A stretch of 64,000 nt of DNA from a virus (lineage: Duplodnaviria > Caudoviricetes): IMG/VR virus record IMGVR_UViG_3300043427_002668; one strand, written 5' to 3'. Below are positions 43,531-64,000 of this stretch, piece by piece. Position 1 is the stretch's first letter; each line of letters begins with the position of its first letter. The notes below the pieces were generated by a model, which did not search any database, had not been told where the DNA came from, and was given only the letters and a program-made list of their open reading frames with translations. A program made the position numbers and the translations under genes.

Positions 43531-43535
43531 CTTTT

Positions 43536-43608: not shown

Positions 43609-43638
43609 TACTTGATAAATAAATACAAAAAGAGTATA

Positions 43639-44073
43639 ATGGAAAAACTGTTTAAACTCTTAAGTGATGCTCAGTCATCACTTTTTGTTTTATTTCATAA
43701 AACTTGGGCGTTTCACTGGAATGTAGTTGGAGAAGATTTTACTCAACTACATCAACTCTTTGGCGGACAGTATGAAACGATGTTTGAAGAGATTGACAGA
43801 CTCTCCGAACATATGAGATACTTAAATGTAAAACCATTAAGTTCTCTTTCAAGAATGCTTGAGGTTACACAAATTAAAGAGGCAGCAAGTTCATCTGGAG
43901 CAAAAGATATGCTTCAAGAACTTCTGGATAATAACACTAAGTTTTGTGAGTTGATGGTAGAGATTTCGGAAGAAGCAGAGCAACAAAAGTCTTATGCAAC
44001 TGCTAATCTAGTTCAAGATTTAATGGAATCTCACGGTAAGTTTGTATGGCAATTAAGATCACATTTACAGTGA
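43639..44073 (+). CDS. dps: Dps/ferritin-like DNA-protection protein
   Basis: HKTWAFHWNVVG.DF.QLHQLF..QY....EEID...E ferroxidase motif; H.KF.WQL C-terminus. Confidence 0.92.
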   Translation: MEKLFKLLSDAQSSLFVLFHKTWAFHWNVVGEDFTQLHQLFGGQYETMFEEIDRLSEHMRYLNVKPLSSLSRMLEVTQIKEAASSSGAKDMLQELLDNNTKFCELMVEISEEAEQQKSYATANLVQDLMESHGKFVWQLRSHLQ

Positions 44074-44088
44074 TGAGGATGAAGAACA

Positions 44089-44340
44089 ATGTTATCAATA
44101 AGATGCAAAGATTGTAATAGAGAACTAACAGGACACCACTCAAAAACAGTTACTTGTGGATGTCCGAATATGGCAACAATTCGTGGAGATAAGATTTCGG
44201 CACTTGACTTATCTCGCATTGTTATGCTAAACTCTTTAAAAGAAAATCAAAAAAAAGGTGTGCTGACTTCTCAAGATATTGCTTGGCAAGAAGCACGTCG
44301 CCAGCGTAAAGTTAGGCGTCTTGATTTTGAAGTTCGTTAA
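44089..44340 (+). CDS. small Zn-binding hypothetical
   Basis: CKDC...CGC motif. Confidence 0.65.
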   Translation: MLSIRCKDCNRELTGHHSKTVTCGCPNMATIRGDKISALDLSRIVMLNSLKENQKKGVLTSQDIAWQEARRQRKVRRLDFEVR

Positions 44341-44352
44341 GAACTGAATATT

Positions 44353-44437
44353 GGAAAGGTGGTCGAGTGGTTGAAGGCTCCAGTCTTGAAAACTGGCGAT
44401 GTGAAAGCATCCGTGGGTTCGAATCCCACCCTTTCCG
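44353..44437 (+). tRNA. tRNA-Ser(TGA)
   Basis: CCAGT-CT-TGA-AA-ACTGG; long variable arm. Confidence 0.93.
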
Positions 44438-44549
44438 TTAAGAAGCATTAAAAATTTAAGATTCTCTTCAACAGTGTTACTCTTTGAACACAAATCGTTG
44501 ACGTTCAAAAGTCCAGAACTAGTATATAGTAGTAATACGAACTAGAAAA

Positions 44550-44699
44550 ATGGATCAACGCACCTATGATAATTGGGTGAAGATCAAAGAAACTTTTGAG
44601 GCTTCTGGTAACACTGATAATATGTTCTATAAAAGAGCAGTTGAGATAGTTAAAACCCGTAGAGATCCTCTTGCAAAATTTCTTGGAGATGAGAAGTGA
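44550..44699 (+). CDS. 49-aa hypothetical
   Basis: MDQRTYDNWVKIKETFEASGNTDNMFYKRAVEIVKTRRDPLAKFLGDEK. Confidence 0.55.
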   Translation: MDQRTYDNWVKIKETFEASGNTDNMFYKRAVEIVKTRRDPLAKFLGDEK

Positions 44700-44899
44700 T
44701 GGAACCTCAAGACGAATTTATTACTCGTTCAGAAGTTCAGGAGATGATTGATGCAGCAATACGACGACACAACCGTAATGCTTCTATCATTAGTATGTGC
44801 GTCGGTTGGGTGGTTCTTGCTTTATTTGCTGAGGGACTACTGAGACTGATTGGTATTATTCCCCCACTCTTACCTTGGCTTAAGATCACGTTAAACTAA
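44696..44899 (+). CDS. small membrane protein
   Basis: AIRRHNRNASIISMCVGWVVLALF TM segment. Confidence 0.65.
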   Translation: MMEPQDEFITRSEVQEMIDAAIRRHNRNASIISMCVGWVVLALFAEGLLRLIGIIPPLLPWLKITLN

Positions 44900-45003
44900 T
44901 GTCAGAAGAAGATTTAGAAGAACTACTAAAAAGAGTTTTACAACAAAAGATGAATGAACTTTTTGAAGAACCTTCTACATACGAGGACGAAGACGATGAA
45001 TGA
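44899..45003 (+). CDS. 34-aa acidic peptide
   Basis: MSEEDLEELLKRVLQQKMNELFEEPSTYEDEDDE; TAATG coupling. Confidence 0.5.
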   Translation: MSEEDLEELLKRVLQQKMNELFEEPSTYEDEDDE

Positions 45004-45085
45004 CCGCATCTATACAGCACTCACAATCTTTGGTATAATAGGATTGTTAATCATTTGGTCCCTAGATCACGCATATATAAAATGA
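44996..45085 (+). CDS. 29-aa single-TM peptide
   Basis: MNDRIYTALTIFGIIGLLIIWSLDHAYIK. Confidence 0.4.
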   Translation: MNDRIYTALTIFGIIGLLIIWSLDHAYIK

Positions 45086-45198
45086 TTTTCCATATCGTAG
45101 AAGCACTCGCAGCAAATCCATTTTTTCTTTTTCTCTGCGGGTGCGGGTTGACAATCGTACCATTTGCTGGTATTATGTTTATACATAGAGACAAGTAA
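45082..45198 (+). CDS. 38-aa TM peptide
   Basis: MIFHIVEALAANPFFLFLCGCGLTIVPFAGIMFIHRDK; ATGA coupling; stop abuts tRNA-Pro. Confidence 0.45.
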   Translation: MIFHIVEALAANPFFLFLCGCGLTIVPFAGIMFIHRDK

Positions 45199-45272
45199 CC
45201 GGGTTTAGCGCAGTTTGGTAGCGCATCTGCTTTGGGAGCAGAGGGTCGCAGGTTCGAATCCTGCAACTCGGA
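45199..45272 (+). tRNA. tRNA-Pro(TGG)
   Basis: TCTGC-TT-TGG-GA-GCAGA; full cloverleaf. Confidence 0.93.
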
Positions 45273-45288
45273 CTCATAAAATCACTTT

Positions 45289-45522
45289 ATGAAAATGAAT
45301 CCAGAAATCGAAAAACTTCCATCCTTTACAATTGAAGAGTTTCAAGCAGATTTTGATAACCTTATGAATAGAGTAGAAAGCGGTGAGACACTACTCATCA
45401 AAAGTCAACACGGAAATGCAGTAATGGTTCCTTACAAAGAAGTGGTTAGTATATGTAACGAAGCAAATGTGGATCTTGAAGAGATAGTCAAGATTCACAC
45501 AGACCACGAAGAAGGGTCTTGA
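45289..45522 (+). CDS. Phd/YefM antitoxin-like protein
   Basis: TIEEFQADFDNLMNRVESGETLLIKSQHGNAVMVPY resembles the Phd N-terminal pattern. Confidence 0.55.
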   Translation: MKMNPEIEKLPSFTIEEFQADFDNLMNRVESGETLLIKSQHGNAVMVPYKEVVSICNEANVDLEEIVKIHTDHEEGS

Positions 45523-45561
45523 CAGAGCGTTCCAGGTCCGCTACTATAGATCTGGTCTTAA

Positions 45562-45633
45562 GGGACTGTCGCCTATGGGTTAAGGCCCACTGCTTATAAC
45601 GGTGTGAACTGAGTTCAAGTCTCAGCAGTCCTA
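45562..45633 (+). tRNA. tRNA-Ile(TAT)
   Basis: CACTG-CT-TAT-AA-CGGTG; TTGACA-N17-TACTAT promoter just upstream. Confidence 0.85.
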
Positions 45634-45832
45634 CTTTGCTTATCCATTTTGTAGTGGGTTTTTTAGGATAAGCAACAGAAAACCTACTTGAAAAAAGGAG
45701 AGTGAAAAACCCCAGCTGCAAGTCGGTGCGAAACAGACCTATGACTTGTATTGCGCTTCTGTTTCACTGTATGGATCTCTCCTCCAACATACATTTATTA
45801 TAAATAGGTGTATGTATACGTTCATAACCAAA

Positions 45833-46252
45833 ATGATTATCTGTAAATCCTGCGGTAAAGAAGTTGAACAACATCCACGAAAAGGTGGAAGAGCAAAACT
45901 CTATTGTAATGAAACTTGCCGAATGAAATGGAGATATAGAAATGATCCTTGTGTTATGAACAGAAACACTTATACTGAACAAAAAGAACGTGCATATTCC
46001 AATAAATGGAAAGCACTTCAATATAAAGGTGCTAAGTGTCAAACTTGTGGTGAAGATAGGCCAGCAACTCTATGCTTTCATCATAGAGATCCTTCTCAAA
46101 AAGAATTAAAACTTGATGGAAGATCTTTTGCTAATAGGAAATGGGACACTATCAAAGAAGAAGTAGATAAATGTGATCTTCTTTGTCATAACTGCCATCA
46201 TATATTACATTATGGTGATAGTTGGGGAGAGTTTTTACAAACGCTGGTTTAG
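45833..46252 (+). CDS. HNH endonuclease with N-terminal Zn finger
   Basis: CKSC...CNETC; CQTC...FHHRDP...CDLLCHNCH; TATAAATA at 45799. Confidence 0.85.
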   Translation: MIICKSCGKEVEQHPRKGGRAKLYCNETCRMKWRYRNDPCVMNRNTYTEQKERAYSNKWKALQYKGAKCQTCGEDRPATLCFHHRDPSQKELKLDGRSFANRKWDTIKEEVDKCDLLCHNCHHILHYGDSWGEFLQTLV

Positions 46253-46315
46253 CTCTCTGGCGAAAGCACTGCCCTCATAAGGCAAGATAGGTCGGTTCGA
46301 TCCCGACAACCAGCA
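46243..46315 (+). tRNA. tRNA-Met(CAT) (elongator or Ile2)
   Basis: GCTGGTT/AACCAGC acceptor; CT-CAT-AA loop; overlaps the HNH stop codon. Confidence 0.85.
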
Positions 46316-47481: not shown

Positions 47482-47515
47482 GGAGGTTGACAACAACCTC
47501 CTTTTTTTGTATCAT
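47482..47515 (+). promoter_or_regulatory. terminator/promoter cassette at the start of the glycan island
   Basis: GGAGGTTG-ACAA-CAACCTCC plus T tract; TTGACA(47487)-N17-TATCAT. Confidence 0.75.
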
Positions 47516-47541: not shown

Positions 47542-48447
47542 ATGAATGTAATTGCTGGAAATTGTGCGGGAGTTTTTAGTGGATTTCTTCTGCAACTTGC
47601 ATGGATGGAAACCGCAGAAAGATCAGATGGAGAAATAAATCTTTCACTTCACACAAGAAATAAAACTCATTACCCCGGTAGCAGCTATTCAAACTATAGG
47701 TGGTTGAAGTCTTCTGAAGTAAATAATTTTGATGAGGTTTTGGAAAAAAACGTTCTTTTTGATTTTTTTGAACCAAATGAGTATATGGTAAAAGAATATC
47801 CAAAAGAGTTTACTTATTTTGAAGCTTATCCTGCAGATATAAAATCTGAACTAAAATTTTATCCAGAAGATACTCTAAAATATGATGGTAGAGGTAGTAA
47901 AAAAGAGCAGTATGTTGACCTGGAAAATATTAGCAAAACAAGAGTAGCTTTAAATCGACAGTGGAATAAGTTTAAACTTCTGGATCATTTTAATCAAAAA
48001 GCAAAAGAAGAAGAAAAACTAATAGAGGGAAAAAAAGTAATGTCTATTATGCTAAGGCATTCGGGGCATTATCAAGGAATAACCAACGTTGTAGAACATG
48101 CTATCGACTCAGTTAAGAGTAAAATAGATGATTATGATGCTGTTCTCTTAACCACAATGATTCAACCGTTTGTTGATGAGTTTAAAAGTGTTTTTGGTAA
48201 TAGGTGCATTTGTGCTGAAAGACCAAGACTTTCTACTGATATTGATTGGAAAGGTGGAAGACCTTCTAATCAGGAATCTATGACTGATGATGAGTATGCA
48301 ATTGAATATCAGAATGCCTTTCTAGATGTAATTTTATCCAGTAAAACCGATCTCATTATTGGTAGTAGTAGTAATATGTTTCTTTCTGCATTGTCTATGA
48401 ACCCAGATGTTTCATATGATCTTTTTTATTTTACTGATGGATATTGA
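47542..48447 (+). CDS. putative fucosyltransferase-like (NodZ/O-FucT-like GT-B)
   Basis: SIMLRH donor-binding-like motif; AFLDVILSSKTDLIIGSSSNMF. Confidence 0.55.
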   Translation: MNVIAGNCAGVFSGFLLQLAWMETAERSDGEINLSLHTRNKTHYPGSSYSNYRWLKSSEVNNFDEVLEKNVLFDFFEPNEYMVKEYPKEFTYFEAYPADIKSELKFYPEDTLKYDGRGSKKEQYVDLENISKTRVALNRQWNKFKLLDHFNQKAKEEEKLIEGKKVMSIMLRHSGHYQGITNVVEHAIDSVKSKIDDYDAVLLTTMIQPFVDEFKSVFGNRCICAERPRLSTDIDWKGGRPSNQESMTDDEYAIEYQNAFLDVILSSKTDLIIGSSSNMFLSALSMNPDVSYDLFYFTDGY

Positions 48448-49250
48448 TTATGAAAAAAAAGTTTAACTTAGTTGGTAATACTTTTACCCATCTTACTAAT
48501 GGTAACAAGGGATATTCCGTTCATGGAAAAGAATCCAAATATATTGAGTGGGTTCAAGATGGTGGTGATGGAACTTTTTACATCGATGATACTATTAATA
48601 ATGGGATTAATGATAAAATGAAGGGACCAAAATATCTTTGGTTGCTTGAATCTAAATTCATTAAACCTGGACTTGTAGAAAGTATTATTGAAAATCGTGA
48701 GTTAGTTGAGAATACTTATGAGACTATTTTCACTCACGATCAGAGACTTTTAAATCTTGGTGATAAGTTTAAGTGGGTTCCCGCTCAGGGATTTTGGATT
48801 AAAGAACCTAAAATTTATGAGAAATCAAAAATGATTTCAATGATCTCTTCAAACAAAAGAATGTGTGAGGGGCATATTAAAAGGTTGGAATGGGTAGAGA
48901 GGATTGGAGAACAAGTTGACCTTTATGGTCGCGGATTTAAAGAAATTGCTGATAAAGAAGAAGGATTATGTGACTATATGTTCTCGGTAGCAATTGAGAA
49001 CGGTCAGTATGAAACATACTTTACAGAAAAACTTCTTGATTGTTTCGCAACAGGAACAATTCCTGTTTATCTTGGAGCACCAGATATTGGTAGTCATTTT
49101 AATACTGATGGTATTATTGTATTGAGTGAAGAGTTTGATGTTTCTGAAGAAATCTATTATAGTAAAATGGATGCAATTCAGGACAATTTGGAGCGTGCTA
49201 AAAAGATGGAAATTTTAGAAGATTTTATTTGGGAGAATTATTATGTTTGA
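48444..49250 (+). CDS. GT10-family (alpha-1,3-fucosyltransferase-like)
   Basis: YMFSVAIEN...YFTEKLLDCFATGTIPVYLG. Confidence 0.82.
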   Translation: MIMKKKFNLVGNTFTHLTNGNKGYSVHGKESKYIEWVQDGGDGTFYIDDTINNGINDKMKGPKYLWLLESKFIKPGLVESIIENRELVENTYETIFTHDQRLLNLGDKFKWVPAQGFWIKEPKIYEKSKMISMISSNKRMCEGHIKRLEWVERIGEQVDLYGRGFKEIADKEEGLCDYMFSVAIENGQYETYFTEKLLDCFATGTIPVYLGAPDIGSHFNTDGIIVLSEEFDVSEEIYYSKMDAIQDNLERAKKMEILEDFIWENYYV

Positions 49251-50905: not shown

Positions 50906-51244
50906 ATGTACGTAGAAGAAAGACCTTGGGGGATTTTTGAAAACTTATGTGATGAAGAGACCTATAAGGTAAAACGAATATATGTAAATCCAAATCAATC
51001 ATTTTCTCTTCAGTACCATAATAATCGTTGGGAAGATTGGATTGTGGTTCAAGGTAGTGGTATAATTAACGATGGTTTTGAAGTTAGAAATTGTATTGTT
51101 GGCGATAGGTTTCATATTCCACCAAAAAACATCCATAGAGCAACTGCTGGTCCGGAAGGATTAACTTTTATCGAAGTTCAACGTGGTGTTTGTGATGAAA
51201 ATGATATTGTAAGAATTGAAGATAACTACGGTAGAGTTGCATAA
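50906..51244 (+). CDS. cupin, type II mannose-6-phosphate isomerase C-terminal-like
   Basis: ERPWG, SLQYH..RWEDW, H...AG...FIEVQRG...ENDIVRIEDNYGR. Confidence 0.88.
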   Translation: MYVEERPWGIFENLCDEETYKVKRIYVNPNQSFSLQYHNNRWEDWIVVQGSGIINDGFEVRNCIVGDRFHIPPKNIHRATAGPEGLTFIEVQRGVCDENDIVRIEDNYGRVA

Positions 51245-51289: not shown

Positions 51290-52030
51290 ATGAATCGAAT
51301 TACAAATTACTCTGATCTTGAAACTCGCATTGTTTCTTGGTTAAAAGAATATGCCGAAAAATTTAATATTAAGGCATTTGTAATTGGTGTTTCTGGTGGG
51401 ATTGATTCTGCCGTTTCATCCACTCTTGCTGCTAAAACAGGTCTTCCAGTTTATGCTCTTGGAATGCCTATCCTTCAAAAGGAAGAACAGGAATCACTCT
51501 CTGATACCCATCTTGAATGGTTGCAAGCAAACTTTAGTAATGTCATCGTTCAAAAGTATGATCTCACTAAAGTGTTTGAGACCTTTAAGTTCACGATGAG
51601 AGAATTCGGTACTGATACTCATGCTCTTGCCAATACACGTTCTCGTATTCGTATGGTTACATTGTATCAAGTTGCCACTTCAGTTGGTGGTATTGTTGTT
51701 GGTACAGGAAACAAAGTTGAGGATTATGGTGTAGGATTTTATACTAAATATGGTGACGGTGGAGTTGATATTGCTCCTATCGCAGATCTCTATAAGACTG
51801 AGGTTTGGGAACTTGGTAGGCATTTTGGTGTAGATCAACGCATTATTGATGCCTCTCCTACTGATGGTCTCTGGGATGATGGAAGAACTGATGAAGATCA
51901 ACTCGGTGCTTCTTATTCTGCTTTAGAGGAAGCAATGGAACTTGGTACAGGTGATGCTGTAGAAGTTCTTAAAAAATTCAATGCTATAAACAGTCATAAA
52001 ATGAATCCTATTCCTACTTTTACTCTATGA
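51290..52030 (+). CDS. nadE: NH3-dependent NAD+ synthetase
   Basis: GVSGGIDS, NTRSRIRMVTLY, GTGNKVE, FYTKYGDG, LYKTEV and PTDGLW. Confidence 0.93.
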   Translation: MNRITNYSDLETRIVSWLKEYAEKFNIKAFVIGVSGGIDSAVSSTLAAKTGLPVYALGMPILQKEEQESLSDTHLEWLQANFSNVIVQKYDLTKVFETFKFTMREFGTDTHALANTRSRIRMVTLYQVATSVGGIVVGTGNKVEDYGVGFYTKYGDGGVDIAPIADLYKTEVWELGRHFGVDQRIIDASPTDGLWDDGRTDEDQLGASYSALEEAMELGTGDAVEVLKKFNAINSHKMNPIPTFTL

Positions 52031-52950
52031 GTGTTTGTCTTACTTTAAGTAATAAAATTTCCGATGATAGTTGGAAAAAAACTATTCCATTGATTGACGG
52101 ATTTGGAACAGAAGGAATAGGTTCCATGATGCAATATCATCTACTCCTGAGGTTTTTTACAGACCTCATCGGGGTAGATTTTACTTATCCTGGTTCTGCA
52201 AATTTTGCTCATCATTCTTACAGTGGATATTCTGAAAATGAATATATGAATTTGATTGATTCCTTTTTTAATTTTCCAAATTTAAAGAATAGTTGGGACG
52301 AAGTTTATAATATTACAGATATTAATTATGAATTATTTTCTTTGATCGAGAATCACAAAAATAGTGATAGGAAAATATTAATCAATCTTTCTAATTGTCA
52401 TAGGCAAATATCAAATATATGTCACCAAAAACTTGACGACATATTTACTAAAGATAGAATTGATCGAATTAGAGAAAAACTATCTTTTGATGGAGAAAAG
52501 TATTTTGATGATGGTGTAAATATTTGTTTGCATCTTAGAACATCAAATCCAAATGATATTCCTTCAGAGATTGCTTCTCCGTTGAGAGAATATTATGTTA
52601 GGGAACGTGAATTTTTTAGATATAAAAATCTCATTGATTTTTTAAAGAAAAATACTGAAAATCAAAAAACAACTCTTCACATTCATTCTCAAGGATTTAC
52701 GACAAATTTTGAAGAATTTTTAGAATTTAAAACTCACGATTTTAATATTCAACTTCATATTGACGATCATCCCATAAGTGATCTCTATCATATGTCAAAT
52801 TCTGATTTATTCATAATGTCTAATAGTTCATTTTCTTGGATAGCATCTCTTTTAAATAGCAATCAAAAGATAGTTAGAGATAATTTTACAAATGGACCTT
52901 TTGTGCCTAATTCATTAAAAGCAAACTACGATTATACTGAAATTATATGA
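52027..52950 (+). CDS. GT11-like glycosyltransferase
   Basis: GIGSMMQ, CLHLR and DLYHMSNSDLFIMSNSSFSW. Confidence 0.6.
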   Translation: MSVCLTLSNKISDDSWKKTIPLIDGFGTEGIGSMMQYHLLLRFFTDLIGVDFTYPGSANFAHHSYSGYSENEYMNLIDSFFNFPNLKNSWDEVYNITDINYELFSLIENHKNSDRKILINLSNCHRQISNICHQKLDDIFTKDRIDRIREKLSFDGEKYFDDGVNICLHLRTSNPNDIPSEIASPLREYYVREREFFRYKNLIDFLKKNTENQKTTLHIHSQGFTTNFEEFLEFKTHDFNIQLHIDDHPISDLYHMSNSDLFIMSNSSFSWIASLLNSNQKIVRDNFTNGPFVPNSLKANYDYTEII

Positions 52951-53729
52951 AACCTACAATTAATGAAGTTAAGTCCTTCTGGGACAATAGACCTTGTAAT
53001 GTTAGGCATTCTAAAAAAGAAGTTGGAACTAAAGAATATTTTGATGAGGTGGAAAATAAAAAATTTTTTGTTGAACCTCATATTAAATCTTTTTCCAAGT
53101 TTAATGAATGGAATGGTAAGAAGGTTTTGGAAATTGGATGTGGTTTGGCTACCGCAGGAATTAATTTTGCTAGGTATGGTGCAGATTACACTGGAGTAGA
53201 ACTTTCCGAAGAAAGTCTTGCATTGGCACAAAGAAGATTTGAAGTTTACAATCAACGTGGTGAGTTCTATCAAGGAAATGCAGAAAATCTTTCTGACTTT
53301 CTTCCGGAAGAAAAGTATCATTTGGTTTATTCTTGGGGAGTAATCCACCATACTCCACATCCTGAAAAAGTAATCAAAGAAGTTAGTAAGTATATGAGTA
53401 AGGATGGTGTATTTAAGTTGATGATGTATGCATCCGAGTCCTGGAAGAATTATATGATTAGTATTGGACTCGATCAACCAGAAGCACAATATGGATGTCC
53501 TATTGCTTATACATATACTGAAGAAGAAATTTATGATTTACTTTCAGAAGATTTTGATGTAATTTCTATAGAAAGAGATCATATTTTTCCTTATCAAATT
53601 GAACCATACAAGGAAGGAAAATATATAAAACAACCTTGGTTTGAAGTTATGCCTGATGAAATGTTTGAAATTTTAGAAAAAAAATTGGGGTGGCATTTAT
53701 TAATTACAGCGAAACTTAAAGGAGAATGA
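52947..53729 (+). CDS. class I SAM methyltransferase
   Basis: VLEIGCGLA, GVELSEESL and YSWGVIHH. Confidence 0.88.
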   Translation: MKPTINEVKSFWDNRPCNVRHSKKEVGTKEYFDEVENKKFFVEPHIKSFSKFNEWNGKKVLEIGCGLATAGINFARYGADYTGVELSEESLALAQRRFEVYNQRGEFYQGNAENLSDFLPEEKYHLVYSWGVIHHTPHPEKVIKEVSKYMSKDGVFKLMMYASESWKNYMISIGLDQPEAQYGCPIAYTYTEEEIYDLLSEDFDVISIERDHIFPYQIEPYKEGKYIKQPWFEVMPDEMFEILEKKLGWHLLITAKLKGE

Positions 53730-54898
53730 GTATGAAGATTGGAGTAATTGGAGCTGGGAGACTTGGAATTTGTTTTGCTCTTCTATGTGAAGCAGCAGGA
53801 TATGATGTTTTAGTTTCTGATATTAGGGAAGATTATGTTAATGGTCTAAATGACCGCAAGATTATTACAAATGAACCAGAAGTAGAAAACCTTCTTCGTG
53901 TTGCTAAAAACTTTAGAGCGACTACAGATAATAAAGAAGTAATTCGTGAGTGTGATTTAATTTACACACTTGTCGCAACTCCTTCACTTGAGGATGGTTC
54001 TTATGATGTTTCTGCTATTTGGAGTGTAGTAGAAGATATTAAAGAAGAAATCGAAGTAAATCCAAAGAAAAAATATTTTGTTGTTGGATGTACTACTAAT
54101 CCTGGTGACTGTGAAAACTTTAAAAAGCAACTTCCTTCCTGTGTAAGTGTCTTCTACAATCCAGAATTTATCGCACAAGGATCTATTATTAACGATCTTC
54201 GTACCGCTGATATGGTTCTTTTGGGGACAAATCCTTTTGAAGATAATGACAGAATTGTATCTGAAATTAAAAAGTTATACGATAAAATCCAGACTACTCG
54301 TGCAATCGTATGTACGATGTCAACAACCGCAGCAGAAATAACTAAGATTGCAATTAACTGTTTCCTGACGACTAAAATTAGTTACGCAAATATGCTTGGT
54401 GATGTTCTTCATCATTCTGGTTGTGGGGATGAAGTTTCTGCTGTTCTGAGTGCTGTAGGAACTGATAGTAGAATTGGCAGAAAGTATCTTGGATATGGAT
54501 TTGGTTATGGTGGTCCTTGTCTTCCAAGGGATAATAGATCCTTTGCTGCATTTGCTAAAAAGGTTGGACTGGAGTATAATTTAGGATCAGTAACTGATGA
54601 AATTAATAATCAACACGCAGGATTTATTTGTGATTATTATGAAAAAATGAATTCTGATAGAAAACCTTTCTATTTTGAATATATCACTTATAAGAAAGGA
54701 ACTGATATTCTTACCGAAAGTCAGCAATATCGTTTATGTATTGATTTACTAGATCGAGGACATACCGTTTACATTCTTAATGATAGTAGAGTTACTCCTC
54801 AAGTCTGTGATTACTTACTTGATACGTATGGGGAAAAAGTTAAATTTGTTGATGATAAAAAATACGTTACCGAATCAATTTTTATTATAAATTTATGA
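53726..54898 (+). CDS. ugd: UDP-glucose/GDP-mannose 6-dehydrogenase
   Basis: GAGRLG, NPEFIAQG, KIAINCF and GYGGPCLPRD. Confidence 0.9.
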   Translation: MSMKIGVIGAGRLGICFALLCEAAGYDVLVSDIREDYVNGLNDRKIITNEPEVENLLRVAKNFRATTDNKEVIRECDLIYTLVATPSLEDGSYDVSAIWSVVEDIKEEIEVNPKKKYFVVGCTTNPGDCENFKKQLPSCVSVFYNPEFIAQGSIINDLRTADMVLLGTNPFEDNDRIVSEIKKLYDKIQTTRAIVCTMSTTAAEITKIAINCFLTTKISYANMLGDVLHHSGCGDEVSAVLSAVGTDSRIGRKYLGYGFGYGGPCLPRDNRSFAAFAKKVGLEYNLGSVTDEINNQHAGFICDYYEKMNSDRKPFYFEYITYKKGTDILTESQQYRLCIDLLDRGHTVYILNDSRVTPQVCDYLLDTYGEKVKFVDDKKYVTESIFIINL

Positions 54899-55989
54899 CT
54901 AAGTATATAAAAATTAGTTCTATTGATCAGATAAAACCGATTCTTAATTCGATTAATACTGAAGAATATTCATTAGTAAACTACATTTGGACTGAATATG
55001 GTTTTCTTGCATTGATGTTCAATGAAATGTTTATTGATTATTTTAAATCTACGGGACCAAAAATCGGATTTTGTTTTCCGGGTCATGAAATATTTTATGA
55101 AAAACACGTAGATATTTTAGTTACTCTCGATGGTTTTATTGATACTACGAAGGCATATAAAGACAATAAAGAAACAGAATTACTTTTAAATAATTTTAAA
55201 AACATATCTGATAGAGGAATTGCTTTCTGGCATACTATTCGTAATTTTGATGAAGATGCCTATGTTTCTATGTTTGATGGGTATGTATTTAAAAATGTTT
55301 TGTATCCAATAGGAAAGGAACTGCATTGGAGTTTGGGATGGCCTATTGGTCCTGGATATAAGTATGCTGAAGGTGAAGATGGTGTTTGGTATACTCCAGA
55401 CACAGAATGGAACAGAACGGGAACGGCAAATTGGGATTTAGACTTATGGGATTCTGATTTTATAAAGGGCGAAGAACTTAATATTGAAAATTACAATTGC
55501 TTTTTTGTAAAAAATTCTTGGAAAACTAGAAGACATTCTTCAACGAATATTGAAGATCTTTTAGTTGAAAGTGAAAGTTCTGCTGACTTTGGATTTGTTG
55601 GATTTGAACTTTATAGTAAAATTGTCAAGTATCATATTGATAACAAGATAAATTTAGTTGTCATTGATGATCTGGTTGAATTTCCTCATGTTGAAAGTGA
55701 GTACATTCATTATGTGACAATGACTAATTTTCTTGATGTCAGACTTCTGATGACAGTAGCAAATAAGTCTAATAACTTTATTAGTAGTGGCACAGGTCCT
55801 CAGGATTTGGCATTATATTATTGCGATACTAATCAGATTGTTGTTACCAACAGTGATTTTATATGTCAAAAAGTGCATTTCTTTGAAAAAATGCAAAAGA
55901 TAAGAAATAGAAAACAATTTTTCTACGATATGAGATGTGATAAACTTGATGACGTGTTGGAATTTTTAAGCGAAGAAACTATCTCATAG
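54895..55989 (+). CDS. hypothetical, possibly glycosyltransferase-like
   Basis: 364-aa ORF coupled within the island; no diagnostic motif recognised. Confidence 0.65.
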   Translation: MTKYIKISSIDQIKPILNSINTEEYSLVNYIWTEYGFLALMFNEMFIDYFKSTGPKIGFCFPGHEIFYEKHVDILVTLDGFIDTTKAYKDNKETELLLNNFKNISDRGIAFWHTIRNFDEDAYVSMFDGYVFKNVLYPIGKELHWSLGWPIGPGYKYAEGEDGVWYTPDTEWNRTGTANWDLDLWDSDFIKGEELNIENYNCFFVKNSWKTRRHSSTNIEDLLVESESSADFGFVGFELYSKIVKYHIDNKINLVVIDDLVEFPHVESEYIHYVTMTNFLDVRLLMTVANKSNNFISSGTGPQDLALYYCDTNQIVVTNSDFICQKVHFFEKMQKIRNRKQFFYDMRCDKLDDVLEFLSEETIS

Positions 55990-55998: not shown

Positions 55999-57003
55999 AT
56001 GAAAGTTGCACTTATTACAGGAATTACGGGTCAAGATGGTTCATATCTTGCGGAATTTCTTTTATCAAATGGATACCAAGTTCATGGTATTATTAGACGT
56101 TCATCATCTATTAACACGGATAGAATTGATCATATTTTTAATAAAATTACATTACACTACGGTGATCTAAATGATTCTACCAATATTATTAGAGTGATTC
56201 AGGATGTTCAACCAGATGAGATTTATAATCTTGGCGCTCAGAGTCATGTAAAAGTTTCTTTTGAAACTCCTGAATATACTGGTATGGTTGATGGTCTTGG
56301 AACTCTCCGCATTCTTGAAGCAGTTCGTCTTCTAGGAATGGAAAAGAAAACAAGAATCTATCAAGCATCTACTTCAGAAATGTTTGGTAAAGTTCAAGAG
56401 ATTCCTCAGAAAGAGACTACTCCATTTTATCCTCGTTCACCTTATGGTTGTGCCAAACTTTATGCATATTGGACTACCAAAAATTATCGAGAAGCATATG
56501 GAATATATGCCTGCTCTGGAATTCTCTTCAACCATGAATCTCCAAGAAGAGGAGAGACATTTGTAACACGTAAAATTACCCGAGGTCTCAAGGCAATGTC
56601 TGAGGGTAGGCAAACCGTTCTTAAACTTGGCAACCTGAACGCAAAACGTGACTGGGGACACGCTAAGGACTTTGTAGAAGCAATGTGGTTAATGCTCCAG
56701 CAAGATGAACCTGAGGATTATGTGATTGCAACTGGAGAACAATATTCTGTTCGTGAGTTTGTTGAAGAAGCGGCACCTTATTTTGATATGAATATTGAAT
56801 GGCAATTTACTGATGTTGGGACAGAAATTGGCGTTGATAAAAATTCTGGACTAGTAAGAGTTATTGTTGATGAAAAATATTTTAGACCTGCTGAGGTTGA
56901 TACTTTGCTAGGCGATGCTTCCAAAGCTAAAGAAAAGTTGGGTTGGAAACCAAGAATTTCTTTCAAAGAACTTGTTAAGGATATGTGTCTCAATGAAAAG
57001 TGA
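55999..57003 (+). CDS. gmd: GDP-mannose 4,6-dehydratase
   Basis: GITGQDG, AQSHV, QASTSE, YGCAK and [17 protein letters not shown]. Confidence 0.97.
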
Positions 57004-57919
57004 TTCTAGAATCTTAGTTGCTGGTGCCAACGGAATGGTTGGTTCTGCAATTGTTCGAAATCTTGAAAGTAAAGGTTACACAAATATTATGAAAGGCACC
57101 CGTCATCTTGTAGATTTTACAAATCAACAAGCAACTGATGATTTTATTGAATCTGTAAGACCTGAGTATGTTTTTTTAACTGCAGCAAAGTGCGGTGGAA
57201 TACTGGATAATATTAACAATCCGGTGAATTATTTGTTGGATAATCTAAACATTCAAAATAATGTAATTTCATCTTCTCATAAGTATGATGTTAAGAAGTT
57301 AATGTTTTTTGCTTCTTCCTGCGTTTATCCTAAAGAAAGTCCTATGCCCATAAAGGAAGAAAATCTAATGATGGGTAACTTTCAAAAAACTCACGAGTTT
57401 TATTCAATTGCTAAAGTATCTGGAATTAAACTTTGTGAGGCATATCAAAAACAATATGGATCTGACTTTATTTCTGTGAATCCTTGCAACATATATGGAA
57501 TAGAAAATAAAGTCGATTCTCCAAACGCACACGTAATGTCAAGTTTGGTCTATAGAATTTGGAAAGCAAAAAAAGATAACGTTCCTCAAGTTGAATGTTT
57601 TGGTGACGGATCTCCAAAAAGAGAGTTTTTGTATTCTGATGATCTCGCTGATGCTGCAATATTTTTAATGACTCAAAAAACAGATTCGTTTATTAATATT
57701 GGAACTGGTATTGAAACTAGTATTGTGGAGTTAGTAGATGAGATTTGCAATATTATTGAATATAGTGGTAAAATAGTATGGGATACATCAAAACCAAACG
57801 GAGCACCAAGAAGAGTTTTGGATGTTAGTAAATTGAACTCTCTAGGGTGGAAACCAAAAACTTCCTTAAGAGGAGGTATTGTAAAAATTGTTAATCATTT
57901 AAATCAGAATTATGTCTAA
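56993..57919 (+). CDS. fcl: GDP-L-fucose synthase/ColC-like epimerase-reductase
   Basis: GANGMVG, AAKCGGI, SSCVYP, YSIAK, HV and [10 protein letters not shown]. Confidence 0.9.
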
Positions 57920-59078
57920 ATCAACTTGGCCACTGATGGAAAACACGATTACGTTTTCTGATCGTTTTAAGATGGCATTGTTTCTTCTCACTAGTGACAA
58001 ACTTACTAATGGACCAAAAGTTCGTGAATTTGAAAATAAGTGGTCTGAGTGGTTAGGTGTTAAACATTCTTTATATGTTTCTAGCGGCAGCACCGCAAAT
58101 ACTTTGCTTGTTTCTGCCGTAAAGGAATATTATGGATTAAAGGATGGGGATAAAGTTCTTGTTCCATCTTGTACTTGGATGACTAATATTGCTCCTGTAA
58201 TTCAAGCAAATCTTCAACCTATTTTTTGTGATATTAATCTTAGAAATTTTTCTTTTGATATTGATGAATTAAAGTATATTGCATCCGAACATCCGGATAT
58301 TAAAGCAGTCTTCATCACACATTTGATTGGACTTTCTTCTAATGTGGAAAAGGTTCGTGAAATTTTTCCAAACGTATTGGTTATGGAAGATATATGCGAA
58401 TCACATGGTGTACGAGGGCCTGATGGAAATAAACGTGGAATAAATTCTGTAGGATCGACTTTTAGTTTTTATTTCGGACATCATATTACAACAATCGAAG
58501 GTGGTGTTGTTTGTACGAATAATACCGAACTTTATGAGTTGATGAGAATGAAGCGTAGTCATGGTATGGCAAGGGAAGCATCTCCTCATATGTTTAAAAA
58601 GTATTCCGAAGAAAATCCAGATATTGATCCAACCTTTTTGTTTATGACAGAAGGGTTTAATCTTAGAAATCATGAGGTTTGTGCTGTTCTTGGATTGTCT
58701 CAGTTGAAAAAGTTGGATAAAAACATCCAGATTCGCAAAGAAAATTTTAAGTATTGGTGGGAAAAAATTTTTAAATCCGAGTCCTATTTTATCCCAGAAT
58801 ACCAAAGGGGAAATAGTAGTTTTTGTTTTCCTATTATCACCAAAGAAAGTTCTTCTATTTCCTTGGTGAAAGAAAAATTAAAAATGAGTGGCATAGAATA
58901 TCGCCCTATCATTAGTGGAAATATTCTTCTACATCCTGCATTTAAAAATTATAAACTTTGTACCAAAAAAGAAACTCCCAATGTCCTTACTCTTCACCAA
59001 AACGGTGTGTATGTTGGTAATAGTCAGTTCGTAAACAAAGAAAGAATTGATAAATTAATTTCAATAATGGATGTATAA
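57912..59078 (+). CDS. PLP-dependent GDP-4-keto-6-deoxymannose 3-dehydratase (ColD-like)
   Basis: DegT fold; VSSGSTAN, EDICES and SFYFGHHITTIEGG (His where aminotransferases have Lys); RPIISGN. Confidence 0.8.
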   Translation: MSKSTWPLMENTITFSDRFKMALFLLTSDKLTNGPKVREFENKWSEWLGVKHSLYVSSGSTANTLLVSAVKEYYGLKDGDKVLVPSCTWMTNIAPVIQANLQPIFCDINLRNFSFDIDELKYIASEHPDIKAVFITHLIGLSSNVEKVREIFPNVLVMEDICESHGVRGPDGNKRGINSVGSTFSFYFGHHITTIEGGVVCTNNTELYELMRMKRSHGMAREASPHMFKKYSEENPDIDPTFLFMTEGFNLRNHEVCAVLGLSQLKKLDKNIQIRKENFKYWWEKIFKSESYFIPEYQRGNSSFCFPIITKESSSISLVKEKLKMSGIEYRPIISGNILLHPAFKNYKLCTKKETPNVLTLHQNGVYVGNSQFVNKERIDKLISIMDV

Positions 59079-59103: not shown

Positions 59104-60066
59104 ATGAACAAAACTATAAACTTTTTTAATGGATTTCACTGCGGTGATTTATTTTCTAGTAAAGAATTTGTCAGACAAATAACAACAGAATTAACTGGAT
59201 TCAATTTTGGATATTATCACGAAAATCATCCAAAGGTTTTATTGGATTTGAATATTCCTTGTTTGGGTCAATATAAGTTAGAACACAACGTACATAAATT
59301 TGTAGAAGAAGAGAATACTCTCAATATTAATACTTGGAGTGGAGCTTATTCTCCAGCTTGTTCTTTTGAACCTCCATATTTTCAAGTTGATGGTATTGGA
59401 ATAAGTTTGGATCTTCTTTGTCTGGAATGGGAGTTTATTTTTCAGAAAATTAATGATACTTTTGGGACTTCTTTGAAGTTAAAGGAAAAGTCTAATTATG
59501 TTCCTGAAATTAACTTTGAATGTTTTAATTTAGAAAATCATAAAAAGTTTTTGGAAGAAAGAGGAAACACCAAGAAAATATTATTTTGTAATGGATTTCC
59601 AATGTCAGGACAGTCAATTCCTGGTGATATGAAAGATATTATTTTGTATTTTGCCGAAAAGTATCCTGAGTATGATTTTATTTGTACTAAGAAATTTGAT
59701 AGTGAAATTAAAAATATATTGTTTACTGACGACATTACCGTCAAATATGATATTCCTATTCGCCTTAACATCCCTTGGAATGATAGAACAAATGGTATTT
59801 GTGATTTGAATGAAATTTCTTATTTGAGTAATTTTTGTGATCTTATAATCGGAAAGCAATCTGGTCCTTTTTGTTTTTGTGCCACAAAGGATAACTTTAT
59901 GAATAAGAATAAACATATAATTTCATTTAATAATAATCCCACTGATTCTCTTGCACATAATCTGGATGTTGAATGTGATTATTTTCTTTGCAGTGAATTT
60001 GAAAGATTTTGTAATGATACACAATACGTTATGGACATCATTGAGGAAAAAATAAATATAATTTAA
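59104..60066 (+). CDS. glycosyltransferase-like hypothetical
   Basis: HCGDLF N-terminus; DLNEISYLSNFCDLIIGKQSGP (GT9-like tail). Confidence 0.55.
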   Translation: MNKTINFFNGFHCGDLFSSKEFVRQITTELTGFNFGYYHENHPKVLLDLNIPCLGQYKLEHNVHKFVEEENTLNINTWSGAYSPACSFEPPYFQVDGIGISLDLLCLEWEFIFQKINDTFGTSLKLKEKSNYVPEINFECFNLENHKKFLEERGNTKKILFCNGFPMSGQSIPGDMKDIILYFAEKYPEYDFICTKKFDSEIKNILFTDDITVKYDIPIRLNIPWNDRTNGICDLNEISYLSNFCDLIIGKQSGPFCFCATKDNFMNKNKHIISFNNNPTDSLAHNLDVECDYFLCSEFERFCNDTQYVMDIIEEKINII

Positions 60067-60123: not shown

Positions 60124-61209
60124 ATGAAAATGGGTCAATATAAAAAAACTGCTCTTGTTTGCGGTGCTGGTGGATTTATTGGAAGTCATATGGTTAAAAG
60201 ACTTCGTTCGGAAGGATACTGGGTTCGTGGTGTTGATATTAAGTATCCTGAGTATTCTAAAACACAAGCAAACGAATTTATTGTTGGAGATCTGACTGAT
60301 TTTGATTTTGTTACCAGAATTATTGAATATAAAGGTGAGTCTGGTAATTTCCACAATTTGGTTCCGGAAAAATATGTGGATTCTTTTGATGAGATCTATC
60401 AGTATGCTGCTGATATGGGTGGAGCTGGATATATTTTCAGTGGAGAAAATGATTCTGAGGTAATGTATAATTCTGCTACTATCAACCTCAATATTCTAAA
60501 AGCTCAACTGAATCTTAATACTCGAAAGGAAGTTAATAAGACTAAGATTTTCTACAGTAGCAGTGCATGTATGTATCCAGAGTACGCTCAAATGGATGTA
60601 AACAATCCTGGACTAAAAGAATCGGATGCTTATCCTGCTGGACCTGATTCTGAATATGGTTGGGAAAAACTATTCTCTGAGCGACTGTACTTGGCATTTA
60701 ATCGCAATCACGAAATTCCTTGCCGTATTGCACGTTTCCATAACATCTATGGTCCTGAGAGCACTTGGGAAGGTGGTAAAGAGAAGTCTCCTGCTGCAAT
60801 GTGTCGTAAAGTGGCATATGCAGAAGATGGCGGTGAAGTTGAGATTTGGGGCGATGGAGAACAAACTCGTTCATTCTTGTATATTGATGAGTGTCTGGAA
60901 GCAACACGTCGTCTAATGGAGTCTGACTTCTTGGGACCTATTAACATTGGTTCTGAGGAAATGGTTACGATTAATCAACTAGCAGATATTGCCGCTAAAG
61001 TTGCTGGTAAGACAATCACCAAAAAGCACATTGATGGTCCTCTTGGTGTTCGTGGTCGCAATTCAAATAATGATCTGATTCGTGAAAAACTTCAATGGGA
61101 TTATGGAATGTCTCTTGAGGAAGGTATTGCCAAGACTTATGATTGGATTTCATACCAGATTGAAAAAAAGGAAAGACTTGCTAATTGGGAACCACTTCCT
61201 AACTTCTGA
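60124..61209 (+). CDS. GDP-mannose 3,5-epimerase-like (GME)
   Basis: GAGGFIG, AADMGGAG, SSACMYP, YGWEK, GGKEKSPAAMCRK and GVRGRNSNN. Confidence 0.88.
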   Translation: MKMGQYKKTALVCGAGGFIGSHMVKRLRSEGYWVRGVDIKYPEYSKTQANEFIVGDLTDFDFVTRIIEYKGESGNFHNLVPEKYVDSFDEIYQYAADMGGAGYIFSGENDSEVMYNSATINLNILKAQLNLNTRKEVNKTKIFYSSSACMYPEYAQMDVNNPGLKESDAYPAGPDSEYGWEKLFSERLYLAFNRNHEIPCRIARFHNIYGPESTWEGGKEKSPAAMCRKVAYAEDGGEVEIWGDGEQTRSFLYIDECLEATRRLMESDFLGPINIGSEEMVTINQLADIAAKVAGKTITKKHIDGPLGVRGRNSNNDLIREKLQWDYGMSLEEGIAKTYDWISYQIEKKERLANWEPLPNF

Positions 61210-61231: not shown

Positions 61232-62101
61232 GTGATTGGATATAATCGTCTTGGAACAAATGGACGTTTGGGAAACCAAATGTTTCAATATGCTGCTCTG
61301 AGAGGAATTGCATCAAACAATAACTTGGAATGGTGCATTCCTCCAGAGGATACTCCTACATATGCAAATTATGGTCTTTTTGAAGCATTTAAACTTACTA
61401 ATTTAAAACATACAGGTCTAGTTAATGGTCCAACTTATGATGAACCTGGATTTGAATTTGATGAAAAACTATTTAACGATTGTCCTGATAATGTAAATAT
61501 TGATGGATATCGTCAAAGTGAAAAATATTTCAAACATATTGAAGAGTCTATTCGTGAAGACTATCAATTTAAAGATGATATCTATGAACCTTGTGCTGAG
61601 TTTATGAGTCAGTTTAAGGGAGATATTACCTTACTTCACATTCGTAGGGGAGATAATACTGGTCGTCCAAATTGGTATCCAATGCCAACAATAGAACATT
61701 ATGAATATCTTTTTGAAAAATATTTCACGGACAATCAACCAGTTTTAATTTGTTCTGATGATCTTGACTGGGTAAAGGAACAAAAACTATTTCAAAGTGA
61801 TAGATTTTATCTATCTGAAACGAGGGTTTATTATCCTCATCAAACTTTAAATGGTGCAGGACAAATGGAAAGATCATTAGTTCCATTTTATGATCTATGT
61901 TTAATGTCTATGTGTAGTAATGCCATTATTGCAAATAGCTCTCTATCTTGGTGGGGTGCTTGGTTGCAAAAAAATTCAAACAAAAAAGTTATTACTCAAA
62001 CTCCTTGGTTTGGTAAAAATCTTTCATTTAATAATCTTAAAGATTTAATTCCAGAATCTTGGATCATTGAACCAATTCCAGAGGAGAGAATACAAAAATG
62101 A
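61232..62101 (+). CDS. GT11 alpha-1,2-fucosyl/colitosyltransferase-like
   Basis: GRLGNQMFQYA, HIRRGD, SDD and ANSSLSWWGAWL. Confidence 0.9.
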   Translation: MIGYNRLGTNGRLGNQMFQYAALRGIASNNNLEWCIPPEDTPTYANYGLFEAFKLTNLKHTGLVNGPTYDEPGFEFDEKLFNDCPDNVNIDGYRQSEKYFKHIEESIREDYQFKDDIYEPCAEFMSQFKGDITLLHIRRGDNTGRPNWYPMPTIEHYEYLFEKYFTDNQPVLICSDDLDWVKEQKLFQSDRFYLSETRVYYPHQTLNGAGQMERSLVPFYDLCLMSMCSNAIIANSSLSWWGAWLQKNSNKKVITQTPWFGKNLSFNNLKDLIPESWIIEPIPEERIQK

Positions 62102-62904
62102 TGGACTTAACTTTTTTAATTCCAACTAGAATTGAGACTGAAGATAGATTGAGAAATATCATTTCTTCAGTCTCTTATTTGCTTAGACATATTCCTGCAA
62201 AGGTAATAGTCAAAGAAGTTTCAAGTCGTCCTACATTTCAGTTTAGAGCAGTTCCTGAAATTAGAAAATATGTGGATACTTCAAATCTTGAGTATTTGTA
62301 TGAAGAGTCTCAAGAACCCCTTTTTTGTAAAAGTAAAGTTTTAAATGATTTAATTGTTGCATCATCTACAAAAGTTGTTGCAAATTATGATGCTGATTGT
62401 ATTCTTCCAATCGATTCATATTATCAGGCATATACTGCAATTAATGAGGATCGAGTAGATGTAGTCTATCCTTATGGATGCGGAATTTATCAATGGAAAG
62501 CATCATACGGTCCAGAGATCTATGAGAGATTTGTAAGCACTTTGGATACCTCTATTTTAGATCAGAATAAATCACTTTCTAACTCCACTATTGGATGGAC
62601 TCAATTTGTAAACCGAAAGAAGTATATTGAGTCTTATATGATGAATGAAAACTTTATTTCCTGGGGATGTGAGGATGATGAATTTTATTATCGTATGAGC
62701 GTTCTTGGTAATCGTATTGGAAGAATTGATAATTATGTCTACCATTTAGAACACTCAAGAACTCATAATTCTTGGTTTAGCAACCCCAACTTTAATAATA
62801 ACTACCATCTTTGGAATCAAATTAAAACATTTGACAGAAATCAATTGATGGGATATTATGAAAATCAGGACTATGTAAAAAATCGCAGAAGTCAAATACG
62901 ATGA
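62098..62904 (+). CDS. GT-A glycosyltransferase (GT2/GT7C-like)
   Basis: NYDADC DxD motif; NENFISWGCEDDEF. Confidence 0.8.
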   Translation: MMDLTFLIPTRIETEDRLRNIISSVSYLLRHIPAKVIVKEVSSRPTFQFRAVPEIRKYVDTSNLEYLYEESQEPLFCKSKVLNDLIVASSTKVVANYDADCILPIDSYYQAYTAINEDRVDVVYPYGCGIYQWKASYGPEIYERFVSTLDTSILDQNKSLSNSTIGWTQFVNRKKYIESYMMNENFISWGCEDDEFYYRMSVLGNRIGRIDNYVYHLEHSRTHNSWFSNPNFNNNYHLWNQIKTFDRNQLMGYYENQDYVKNRRSQIR

Positions 62905-63725
62905 TTGGTTTTAATGCACTAGGTAGAATGGGACGTTTGGCAAACCAAATGTTTCAGTATGCCTCACTTAAAGGAATTGCGAGAAATGTAGGAGCAGATA
63001 TTTGTATTCCAAATCATTCTCAAGCAGTTGATGATGGTATCGGCAACAAACTCAGAACAGAACTTTTTGATTCTTTTGATCTGAAAGTTAATGTTGGACT
63101 TCTGAATAACGGACATTCCCCTACCGTTCAAGAAAGATATTTTCATTTCGATGAGGAACTTTTTTCAATGTGTCCGGATCATGTGAGTCTTCAGGGATAT
63201 TTTCAGACAGAAAAATACTTTAAACATATTGAGTCGGAGATCCGCGAAGATTTTACTTTTAAGGATGAGATTCTTAAACCCTGCCAAGAAATGATTTCTT
63301 CTATTGAAAATCCTCTGGCACTTCACGTAAGAAGAACTGACTATATTGTAAATAGCGATAATCATTTTAATCTTCCACTTGAATATTATAAAGCAGCATT
63401 AAAGCATTTTGATAATGATCGAAGTGTGATTATTTTTTCTGATGATCCTGAATGGTGTAAGTCTCAAGAGATATTCTCAGATGATCGTTTTATGGTTTCT
63501 GAGAATACTGATAATCGAGTGGATCTTTGCTTGATGTCTCTCTGCAATGATTTTATTATTGCAAACTCTTCTTATTCTTGGTGGGCTGCTTGGTTATCTT
63601 CTAATGAGAATAAAAAAGTTATTGCACCCGTCCAGTGGTTTGGTAAAACTGGATATACAAAAGATCACAATACTAAAGATTTAATTCCCGATGACTGGAC
63701 AAGAATTATTGATGGACAAGAATAA
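62901..63725 (+). CDS. GT11 alpha-1,2-fucosyl/colitosyltransferase-like
   Basis: GRLANQMFQYA, HVRRTDY, FSDD and ANSSYSWWAAWL. Confidence 0.9.
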   Translation: MIGFNALGRMGRLANQMFQYASLKGIARNVGADICIPNHSQAVDDGIGNKLRTELFDSFDLKVNVGLLNNGHSPTVQERYFHFDEELFSMCPDHVSLQGYFQTEKYFKHIESEIREDFTFKDEILKPCQEMISSIENPLALHVRRTDYIVNSDNHFNLPLEYYKAALKHFDNDRSVIIFSDDPEWCKSQEIFSDDRFMVSENTDNRVDLCLMSLCNDFIIANSSYSWWAAWLSSNENKKVIAPVQWFGKTGYTKDHNTKDLIPDDWTRIIDGQE

Positions 63726-64000
63726 GTCTGCATATAAACTTAAAGGAATTCCGCAAATTTACTGGATCAACCTTGATGCAGATACTCACAGGCGTGAGTA
63801 TATGGAAACCCAATTTAAATATTGGCAAATTGAGAATCATACTCGTATTTCTGGATATGACGGGAGAGAGGATGATGTATCAAGTCATTTAAAAGGAAGA
63901 ATTCCTGATAATGTGTCACAAAATGAATTGGGGTGTTGTATGTCACATCTCAAAGCAATTAAACATTTCTATGAAAATAGTACAGATGATTATTGCTTGA
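63712..64000 (+). CDS. GT25-family glycosyltransferase (partial, runs off the window)
   Basis: IYWINLDADTHRREYME...ISGYDG...ELGCCMSHLKA. Confidence 0.8.
   Translation, partial: MDKNKSAYKLKGIPQIYWINLDADTHRREYMETQFKYWQIENHTRISGYDGREDDVSSHLKGRIPDNVSQNELGCCMSHLKAIKHFYENSTDDYCL

Follow-up and report, generated by a model that had tools for sequence, protein, structure and literature searches.

Can a phage of cyanobacteria make a 3,6-dideoxy sugar of its own? The question is raised by a 64,000-nucleotide stretch of DNA from the IMG/VR virus record IMGVR_UViG_3300043427_002668 (hereafter, the window, that is, the whole stretch analysed), which belongs to a freshwater T4-like cyanomyovirus. Between positions 55999 and 59078, the window carries three genes in tandem: gmd, encoding a GDP-mannose 4,6-dehydratase, a gene for an Fcl-like epimerase/reductase, and a gene for a protein of the DegT fold. 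An original prediction, made from the sequence without database searches, placed the trio at these positions, where three matching open reading frames (ORFs) are indeed present, and read it as a route to GDP-colitose. 3,6-Dideoxyhexoses are antigenic sugars of bacterial O-antigens, and a phage-encoded route, if real, would bring a rare sugar into the repertoire of viral auxiliary metabolic genes. Considered as a whole, the locus is best explained as a trio that makes GDP-L-colitose alongside GDP-fucose, a reading that, as far as sequence comparison goes, we hold with modest confidence.

The trio lies within a sugar island that extends from position 47542 to the end of the window (more than 16 kb), is AT-rich and has every gene on the + strand. 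The identity of Gmd is straightforward, with the protein passing the curated equivalog model at 558 bits against a cut-off of 415. The Fcl-like ORF is open from 56915 to 57919, its probable start being the ATG at 56993, within the last codons of gmd; the two genes overlap by 11 nucleotides, and the Fcl-like gene in turn overlaps the DegT-fold gene, with its ATG at 57912, by 8 nucleotides. In IMG/VR relatives with sufficient upstream sequence, gmd is located no more than 6 kb away from the dehydratase gene in 71 of 76 cases, and gmd, fcl and the ColD-like gene occur together in 48 of the 76. The gmd gene also adjoins the dehydratase gene in the nearest bacterial relatives (four loci).

The DegT-fold protein contains the motif SFYFGHHITTIEGG at residues 185–198, the first histidine of which is H190 (codon 58479–58481). 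By HMMER alignment, H190 corresponds to His188 of Escherichia coli ColD; this column is precisely the one changed in the PDB mutants H188N and H188K, and in ArnB it is occupied by the catalytic lysine. Histidine is found at this position in 96 of the 98 aligned homologues, lysine being confined to two Lys-type outgroups, so that H190 is no chance substitution. The Gly-His-His (GHH) pattern is present in 79 of the 80 IMG/VR relatives; the remaining one, the sequence of which was not inspected, gave no pattern match. The predicted histidine in place of the Schiff-base lysine is thus borne out, and this replacement is a hallmark of the dehydratases (PMC8987622; 10.1101/2021.09.04.459008).

Several lines of evidence place this protein with ColD within the fold type I (DegT) aminotransferase superfamily, to which it is assigned by the PF01041 profile. 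The best sequence matches in PDB are four E. coli ColD entries (194–198 bits), followed by E1 (124 bits) and perosamine synthase (about 96 bits). An AlphaFold model built from a 40-row alignment (predicted local distance difference test 93, predicted template modelling (TM) score 0.92) retrieves, in a Foldseek search, ColD chains as the top 12 matches (TM 0.86–0.90), and then GDP-perosamine synthases and E1. All eight ColD positions compared (W88, E162, S163, T192, H215, R219, R250 and N371) are retained in the phage protein and are conserved in at least 97% of the 88 rows of the two clades described below, whereas the E1 rows differ; at position 219, the phage protein has arginine where E1 has cysteine. 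These residues, compared here for conservation, are presumed to bind GDP or the sugar. The cysteine-rich iron–sulfur (Fe-S) insert of E1/RfbH is a gap both in the phage protein and in ColD in the alignment that includes the 98 homologues. A four-cysteine [2Fe-2S] motif is characteristic of E1 and SpnQ and is absent from ColD, which regenerates pyridoxamine phosphate (PMP) by transamination with glutamate, without a reductase (PMC8987622). Among the island genes, there is no E3-type reductase, CDP-glucose dehydratase or cytidylyltransferase.

The phylogeny of the dehydratases (a quick IQ-TREE search of 95 rows with SH-aLRT supports) included 80 bacterial loci, ColD of E. coli O55 and O111, a Salmonella RfbH fragment and an E1-like cyanophage gene. 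The Fe-S-free His enzymes group away from E1 (support 89) and divide into clade A (99) and its sister clade B (96). Clade A consists of the classical ColD proteins of E. coli, Yersinia, Vibrio, Marinomonas, Campylobacter and a Prochlorococcus, with gmd-colC-colD synteny. Clade B includes the window protein along with every one of its relatives from phages and metagenomes; among its other members are sponge symbionts, a Halieaceae and Gemmataceae. The prediction of a ColD-like enzyme therefore holds for sequence, fold and residues, but not for membership in the characterised ColD clade, outside which the window protein falls; as for the CDP-specific Fe-S enzymes, the protein does not cluster with E1. 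Given the ColD sequence and fold matches, the missing Fe-S insert, the tree and the eight residues, we consider the protein ColD-like, and neither an E1 enzyme nor an aminotransferase. It is quite probably a ColD-type, Fe-S-free 3-dehydratase that acts on the Gmd product. Specificity for GDP sugars is suggested by gene context, namely, the gene overlaps, the linkage to gmd, the shared island order and the lack of CDP-glucose genes and E3 in the island.

The pathway that we propose begins with Gmd, assigned by homology, which would convert GDP-mannose to GDP-4-keto-6-deoxy-D-mannose. To judge from the family features, the His190 enzyme would then strip the C3 hydroxyl to yield GDP-4-keto-3,6-dideoxy-D-mannose in a PMP-dependent reaction, with PMP renewed from glutamate and no reductase partner. 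The translationally coupled Fcl-family enzyme would perform the C5 epimerisation and C4 reduction to GDP-L-colitose; if it accepts the 3-deoxy substrate, L-colitose would result from its ordinary chemistry. This is the weakest step: because the partner is of the Fcl type and many close relatives lack Fcl, the final conversion to colitose is one that we infer. The same enzyme would turn the Gmd product directly into GDP-L-fucose, and a separate GDP-mannose 3,5-epimerase (GME) would make GDP-L-galactose. The glycosyltransferases (GTs) of the island (two or three GT11, GT10, GT25 and GT9-like) would construct a glycan, or decorate one, in the course of infection, on the host envelope or the virion.

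The partner reductase had been predicted to be an Fcl-like ColC. It looks instead like an Fcl-type enzyme, with 43% identity to E. coli Fcl (WcaG) compared to 33% for ColC of both O55 and O111. The equivalents of the catalytic S107, C109, Y136, K140 and H179 are all kept, and the NLYGPxDNF loop of Fcl is altered to NIYGIENKV. In a tree of short-chain dehydrogenases/reductases (SDRs), the protein groups weakly with Fcl (support 84), on a long terminal branch of 1.01. Against the Fcl model NF047922, for which the cut-off is 500 bits, the window protein scores 363 bits and E. coli ColC 304, and other phage Fcls also fall below the cut-off, with 444–474 bits where no dehydratase is adjacent and 420–427 bits where one is. 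This stepwise fall fits a drift from the canonical Fcl and proves nothing. The Fcl-like gene is the faster-evolving member of the trio, with 47–62% identity among relatives compared to 65–77% for the ColD-like protein and about 72% for gmd.

Several observations weigh against colitose as the product. The window protein shares only 32–35% identity with E. coli ColD, and we know of no characterised member of clade B, in which it belongs together with the other phage proteins. Ser187 of ColD corresponds to Gly189 in the phage protein; this serine is reportedly not conserved among the dehydratases (10.1101/2021.09.04.459008) and is, for this reason, a weak criterion for ColD. In the SDR tree, the ColC clade, with a support of 99, does not include the Fcl-like protein. 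Furthermore, at least 14 close relatives encode Gmd, the ColD-like protein and GME without Fcl, and a search of five phage records in full, among them a 353-kb record rated 98% complete, detected Fcl in none of them, so that Fcl appears to be a non-obligate partner. Where Fcl is present, competition for the 4-keto intermediate that both enzymes use may favour it over the dehydratase. In a sizeable group of close IMG/VR relatives whose searched records contain no Fcl (L115, L116, L118 and L141–L153), gmd directly abuts the ColD-like gene, which is followed by GME.

We searched the island for another enzyme that could complete the pathway. The second SDR, a candidate for the missing ColC, was ruled out as a homologue of GME (7.6e-88 to the Arabidopsis enzyme), and the two flanking unnamed ORFs, 59104–60066 and 54895–55989, were ruled out as hidden reductases, belonging to viral glycosyltransferase-like, GT9-like clusters of the atlas. 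Because the second SDR is GME and the unnamed ORFs are GT-B-like, the Fcl-like enzyme is the sole candidate in the island for the presumed C5 epimerisation and C4 reduction.

These findings bear on the strongest of the rival explanations, in which the dehydratase functions as proposed, and the end product is another GDP-3,6-dideoxyhexose, possibly methylated, formed via a host reductase, a GME-like SDR or an Rmd-like reductase, with the Fcl-like enzyme serving GDP-fucose synthesis only. We give this alternative a minor but appreciable share of the probability. The phylogenetic affinity of the reductase and the many Fcl-less relatives agree with it, as do the methyltransferase in the island and some clade-B bacterial loci (two cases) in which the partner of the dehydratase is not an Fcl but a distant Gmd-like SDR. 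However, the overlap between the fcl and colD-like genes in the window, the retention of all three genes in most of the relatives with upstream room and the failure to find another reductase candidate in the island all speak against this alternative, and the normal C5-epimerase/C4-reductase chemistry of an Fcl, applied to the 3-deoxy substrate, would produce colitose. GDP-L-colitose remains, in our assessment of these sequences, the most likely final sugar, with somewhat better than even chances.

A broader scenario can be outlined, although we regard it as improbable in its entirety. Under this scenario, an abundant cyanophage lineage would possess its own ColD-type clade and a virus-specific 3,6-dideoxyhexose branch independent of canonical ColC, with a fast-evolving Fcl repurposed in this phage and a GME-like or host enzyme finishing the sugar in the Fcl-less relatives; the entire island downstream of the orphan wcaG RNA would assemble a glycan containing L-fucose, L-colitose and L-galactose, which would remodel the surface of the infected cell or the virion.

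Far less probable is a CDP-specific dehydrase of the E1 type (RfbH/DdhC), the enzyme of a route that leads to abequose, tyvelose, paratose or ascarylose. This is implied by the labels of the Joint Genome Institute (JGI), which names the homologues CDP-6-deoxy-D-xylo-4-hexulose-3-dehydrase, and by the GenBank entry of phage S-CAM7. E1 (RfbH/DdhC) shares with the phage protein the DegT fold, the His-for-Lys replacement and C3 deoxygenation of a 4-keto-6-deoxy sugar nucleotide; the local FY.(G/A)HH pattern is similar to FYPAHH of E1, and RfbH is the best NCBIfam model. However, the score for this model (NF011936) is 183 bits, far under the cut-off of 423; the [2Fe-2S] cysteine motif of E1 is absent from the protein, and the E3 reductase that E1 requires is absent from the island; the ColD-specific arginine stands where E1 has cysteine; the tree sets the protein apart; the neighbouring gene is gmd; and the CDP-glucose pathway genes are missing from the island. 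Equally improbable is a sugar aminotransferase such as a GDP-perosamine synthase, the reading suggested by the labels in RefSeq and PHROG. It accords with the DegT fold, the phrog_3139 'aminotransferase' match and the rank of GDP-perosamine synthases immediately after ColD among the fold matches, but is contradicted by the lack of the Schiff-base lysine and the essentially invariant His190. We reject both readings, given the absence of the Fe-S insert, the sub-cut-off RfbH score, His190 and the tree.

Annotation of this family is consistently misleading. The expectation that an automated 'aminotransferase' label would hide the enzyme's identity is correct for RefSeq and PHROGs, but not for JGI and the S-CAM7 GenBank entry, which name a CDP-type 3-dehydrase. 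In PGAP annotation, the name DegT-family aminotransferase is given to E. coli ColD itself, and in phages S-CAM7 and ACG-2014f, the homologues are labelled 'putative CDP-4-keto-6-deoxy-D-glucose-3-dehydrase', 'hypothetical protein' or 'aminotransferase'. The family is abundant, with more than 5000 close metagenomic homologues, labelled by JGI as a CDP-type dehydrase, and at least 518 IMG/VR matches. Re-annotation of these proteins, routinely mislabelled as aminotransferases or CDP-type dehydrases, would be useful.

The colitose pathway of E. coli O55/O111 (Gmd, ColD/WbdK, ColC/WbdJ and WbgN) is among the closest known parallels. The first enzyme is common to both systems, as are a DegT-fold, His-for-Lys dehydratase without Fe-S that retains E162, S163, H215, R219, R250 and N371, the tight linkage to gmd and the presence of GT11 transferases nearby. 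In contrast to the bacterial pathway, the phage dehydratase, apart from its low identity to ColD, belongs to the sister clade and has glycine in place of Ser187, the epimerase/reductase is of the Fcl rather than the ColC type, and the genes lie in a lytic cyanophage island with GME instead of an O-antigen cluster containing wzx/wzy. Synechococcus phages S-CAM7 and ACG-2014f, both T4-like cyanomyoviruses, have the same gmd-fcl-dehydratase-GT11 order, the GHH motif and 52–53% identity; unlike the window phage, they were isolated from the sea, their islands are smaller and the block has no GME beside it. The block is thus already present, mislabelled, in these published genomes. What is proposed here is a known bacterial pathway extended to phages via a sister clade and an Fcl-type partner, and not a new kind of system. 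Being uncharacterised, and paired either with an Fcl-type enzyme or with no epimerase/reductase, clade B offers enzymologists a clearly defined target at little cost, and cultured S-CAM7 and ACG-2014f, grown on Synechococcus WH7803, could reveal the purpose of the glycan. In the library of papers searched, none names both colitose and cyanophage.

Other cyanophages contain part of this gene set. S-SCSM1, S-SRM01 and S-SKS1 have gmd, fcl (with GME in S-SCSM1), GT11 and the wcaG RNA in common with the window but lack the 3-dehydratase and hence the 3-deoxy branch. Sugar genes of this type have been described as cell-wall or lipopolysaccharide modification genes, and a GME-type gene has been annotated in S-SCSM1 (PMC9602691). 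Phages S-H68 (5827–7122), S-B43 and RB11-B encode a longer, E1-like dehydratase homologue with the histidine and a partial cysteine insert (three cysteines); in the S-H68 lineage, this gene adjoins genes of the dTDP-glucose pathway, an apparent second, separate deoxy-sugar route in cyanophages.

Recent capture of the dehydratase gene from a host was not detected among the 401 picocyanobacterial genomes sampled, where the best match is 41% identical to the window protein. A homologue is encoded in 28 of these host-family genomes. Among 12 host loci examined, three have a classical ColD beside ColC, and three have a clade-B dehydratase of the 'AHH' type. Given that both classical ColD+ColC and clade-B loci occur in picocyanobacteria, some of the hosts may produce colitose-type sugars themselves.

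The glycosyltransferases leave more latitude for the donor sugar than had been proposed, namely, that the two GT11 paralogs downstream of the trio transfer colitose. Both exceed the PF01531 cut-off and are homologous to WbgN of E. coli O55, with 27–29% identity, compared to 47–55% identity to the GT11 proteins of phages that lack the dehydratase. WbgN, labelled alpha-1,2-fucosyltransferase in RefSeq, is a characterised alpha-1,2-colitosyltransferase that tolerates GDP-fucose as well (PMC12723683). Sequence does not assign a donor to the phage proteins: the plant-type GME homologue, through which the phage probably also makes GDP-L-galactose, is located directly upstream of the paralogs, and the nearest GT11 relatives come from dehydratase-less phages. 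Because the second SDR is a GME that would supply L-galactose, several donors come into consideration, and the GT11 enzymes could use fucose, colitose or L-galactose.

The phage itself is identified by PHROG matches to a head scaffold protein, the major head protein, a UvsW-type helicase, a gp46-like nuclease, DNA polymerase and both subunits of ribonucleotide reductase. Its nearest DNA matches and closest records are Kyanoviridae. With positions 40000–64000 as the query, a phage collection contained no close match, the best record covering 11% of the query at 78.5% identity, and the contig index listed no record with exactly the same dehydratase protein. The sequencing runs that contain the window stretch are DNA runs, mostly freshwater metagenomes, with no RNA runs listed among them. 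The order of the island genes (gmd, Fcl-like, DegT-fold and so on) recurs on metagenomic phage contigs of 122–177 kb.

Features of the sugar island and its upstream region (positions in the window)
Feature	Coordinates	Strand	Evidence or remark
wcaG RNA motif RF01761	47373-47473	+	island head; Rfam 95 bits, gathering score 42
Terminator-like hairpin, GC-rich, with T-run	47482-47501		directly after wcaG RNA; hairpin scan
Promoter-like site TTGACA-17-TATCAT, near-consensus	47487-47515		overlaps the hairpin 47482-47501; promoter scan
GT10	48444-49250	+	upstream half of the island
Small cupin, mannose-6-phosphate isomerase C-terminal type	50906-51244	+	PF01050, 4e-21
NAD synthase, complete	51290-52030	+	PF02540, 1e-47
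Weak GT11-like ORF	52027-52950	+	
S-adenosylmethionine-dependent methyltransferase	52947-53729	+	
Nucleoside diphosphate-sugar dehydrogenase	53726-54898	+	
GT-like ORF	54895-55989	+	viral glycosyltransferase-like clusters of the atlas; GT-B look
gmd, GDP-mannose 4,6-dehydratase	55999-57003	+	TIGR01472 558 bits; PF16363 504 bits
Fcl-family GDP-4-keto-6-deoxymannose epimerase/reductase, candidate ColC-equivalent	56993-57919	+	NF047922 363 bits; 1bsv 1.2e-78
Putative ColD-type 3-dehydratase, dependent on pyridoxal phosphate/PMP, clade B	57912-59078	+	PF01041 195 bits; ColD 2gms 1.5e-57
GT-B/GT9-like putative glycosyltransferase, 320 amino acids	59104-60066	+	viral clusters of the atlas; GT9 structural match, TM 0.64
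GME homologue	60124-61209	+	Arabidopsis GME 2c59, 7.6e-88
GT11 glycosyltransferase, paralog a	61232-62101	+	PF01531 59.5 bits; 27% identity to WbgN
Glycosyltransferase-like protein	62098-62904	+	phrog_15655; weak GT7C match
GT11 glycosyltransferase, paralog b	62901-63725	+	PF01531 97 bits; 29% identity to WbgN, 55% to S-SCSM1 GT11
GT25 glycosyltransferase, truncated by the window end	63691-64000	+	PF01755

The head of the island is marked by the orphan wcaG RNA motif, and the layout of the RNA, hairpin and promoter-like site, as predicted by the scans, resembles a riboswitch-style expression platform. Upstream of the trio, the small cupin supplies the GDP-mannose pool, and the NAD synthase is kept at the same island position in the closest metagenomic relatives (L098–L100). 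The GT9-like ORF, for which Pfam and PHROG searches gave no match, is an insertion between the ColD-like gene and GME that these collinear relatives lack. Eight tRNA genes are clustered upstream of the island, at positions 42778–46315, and a ninth is located at 28362–28434.

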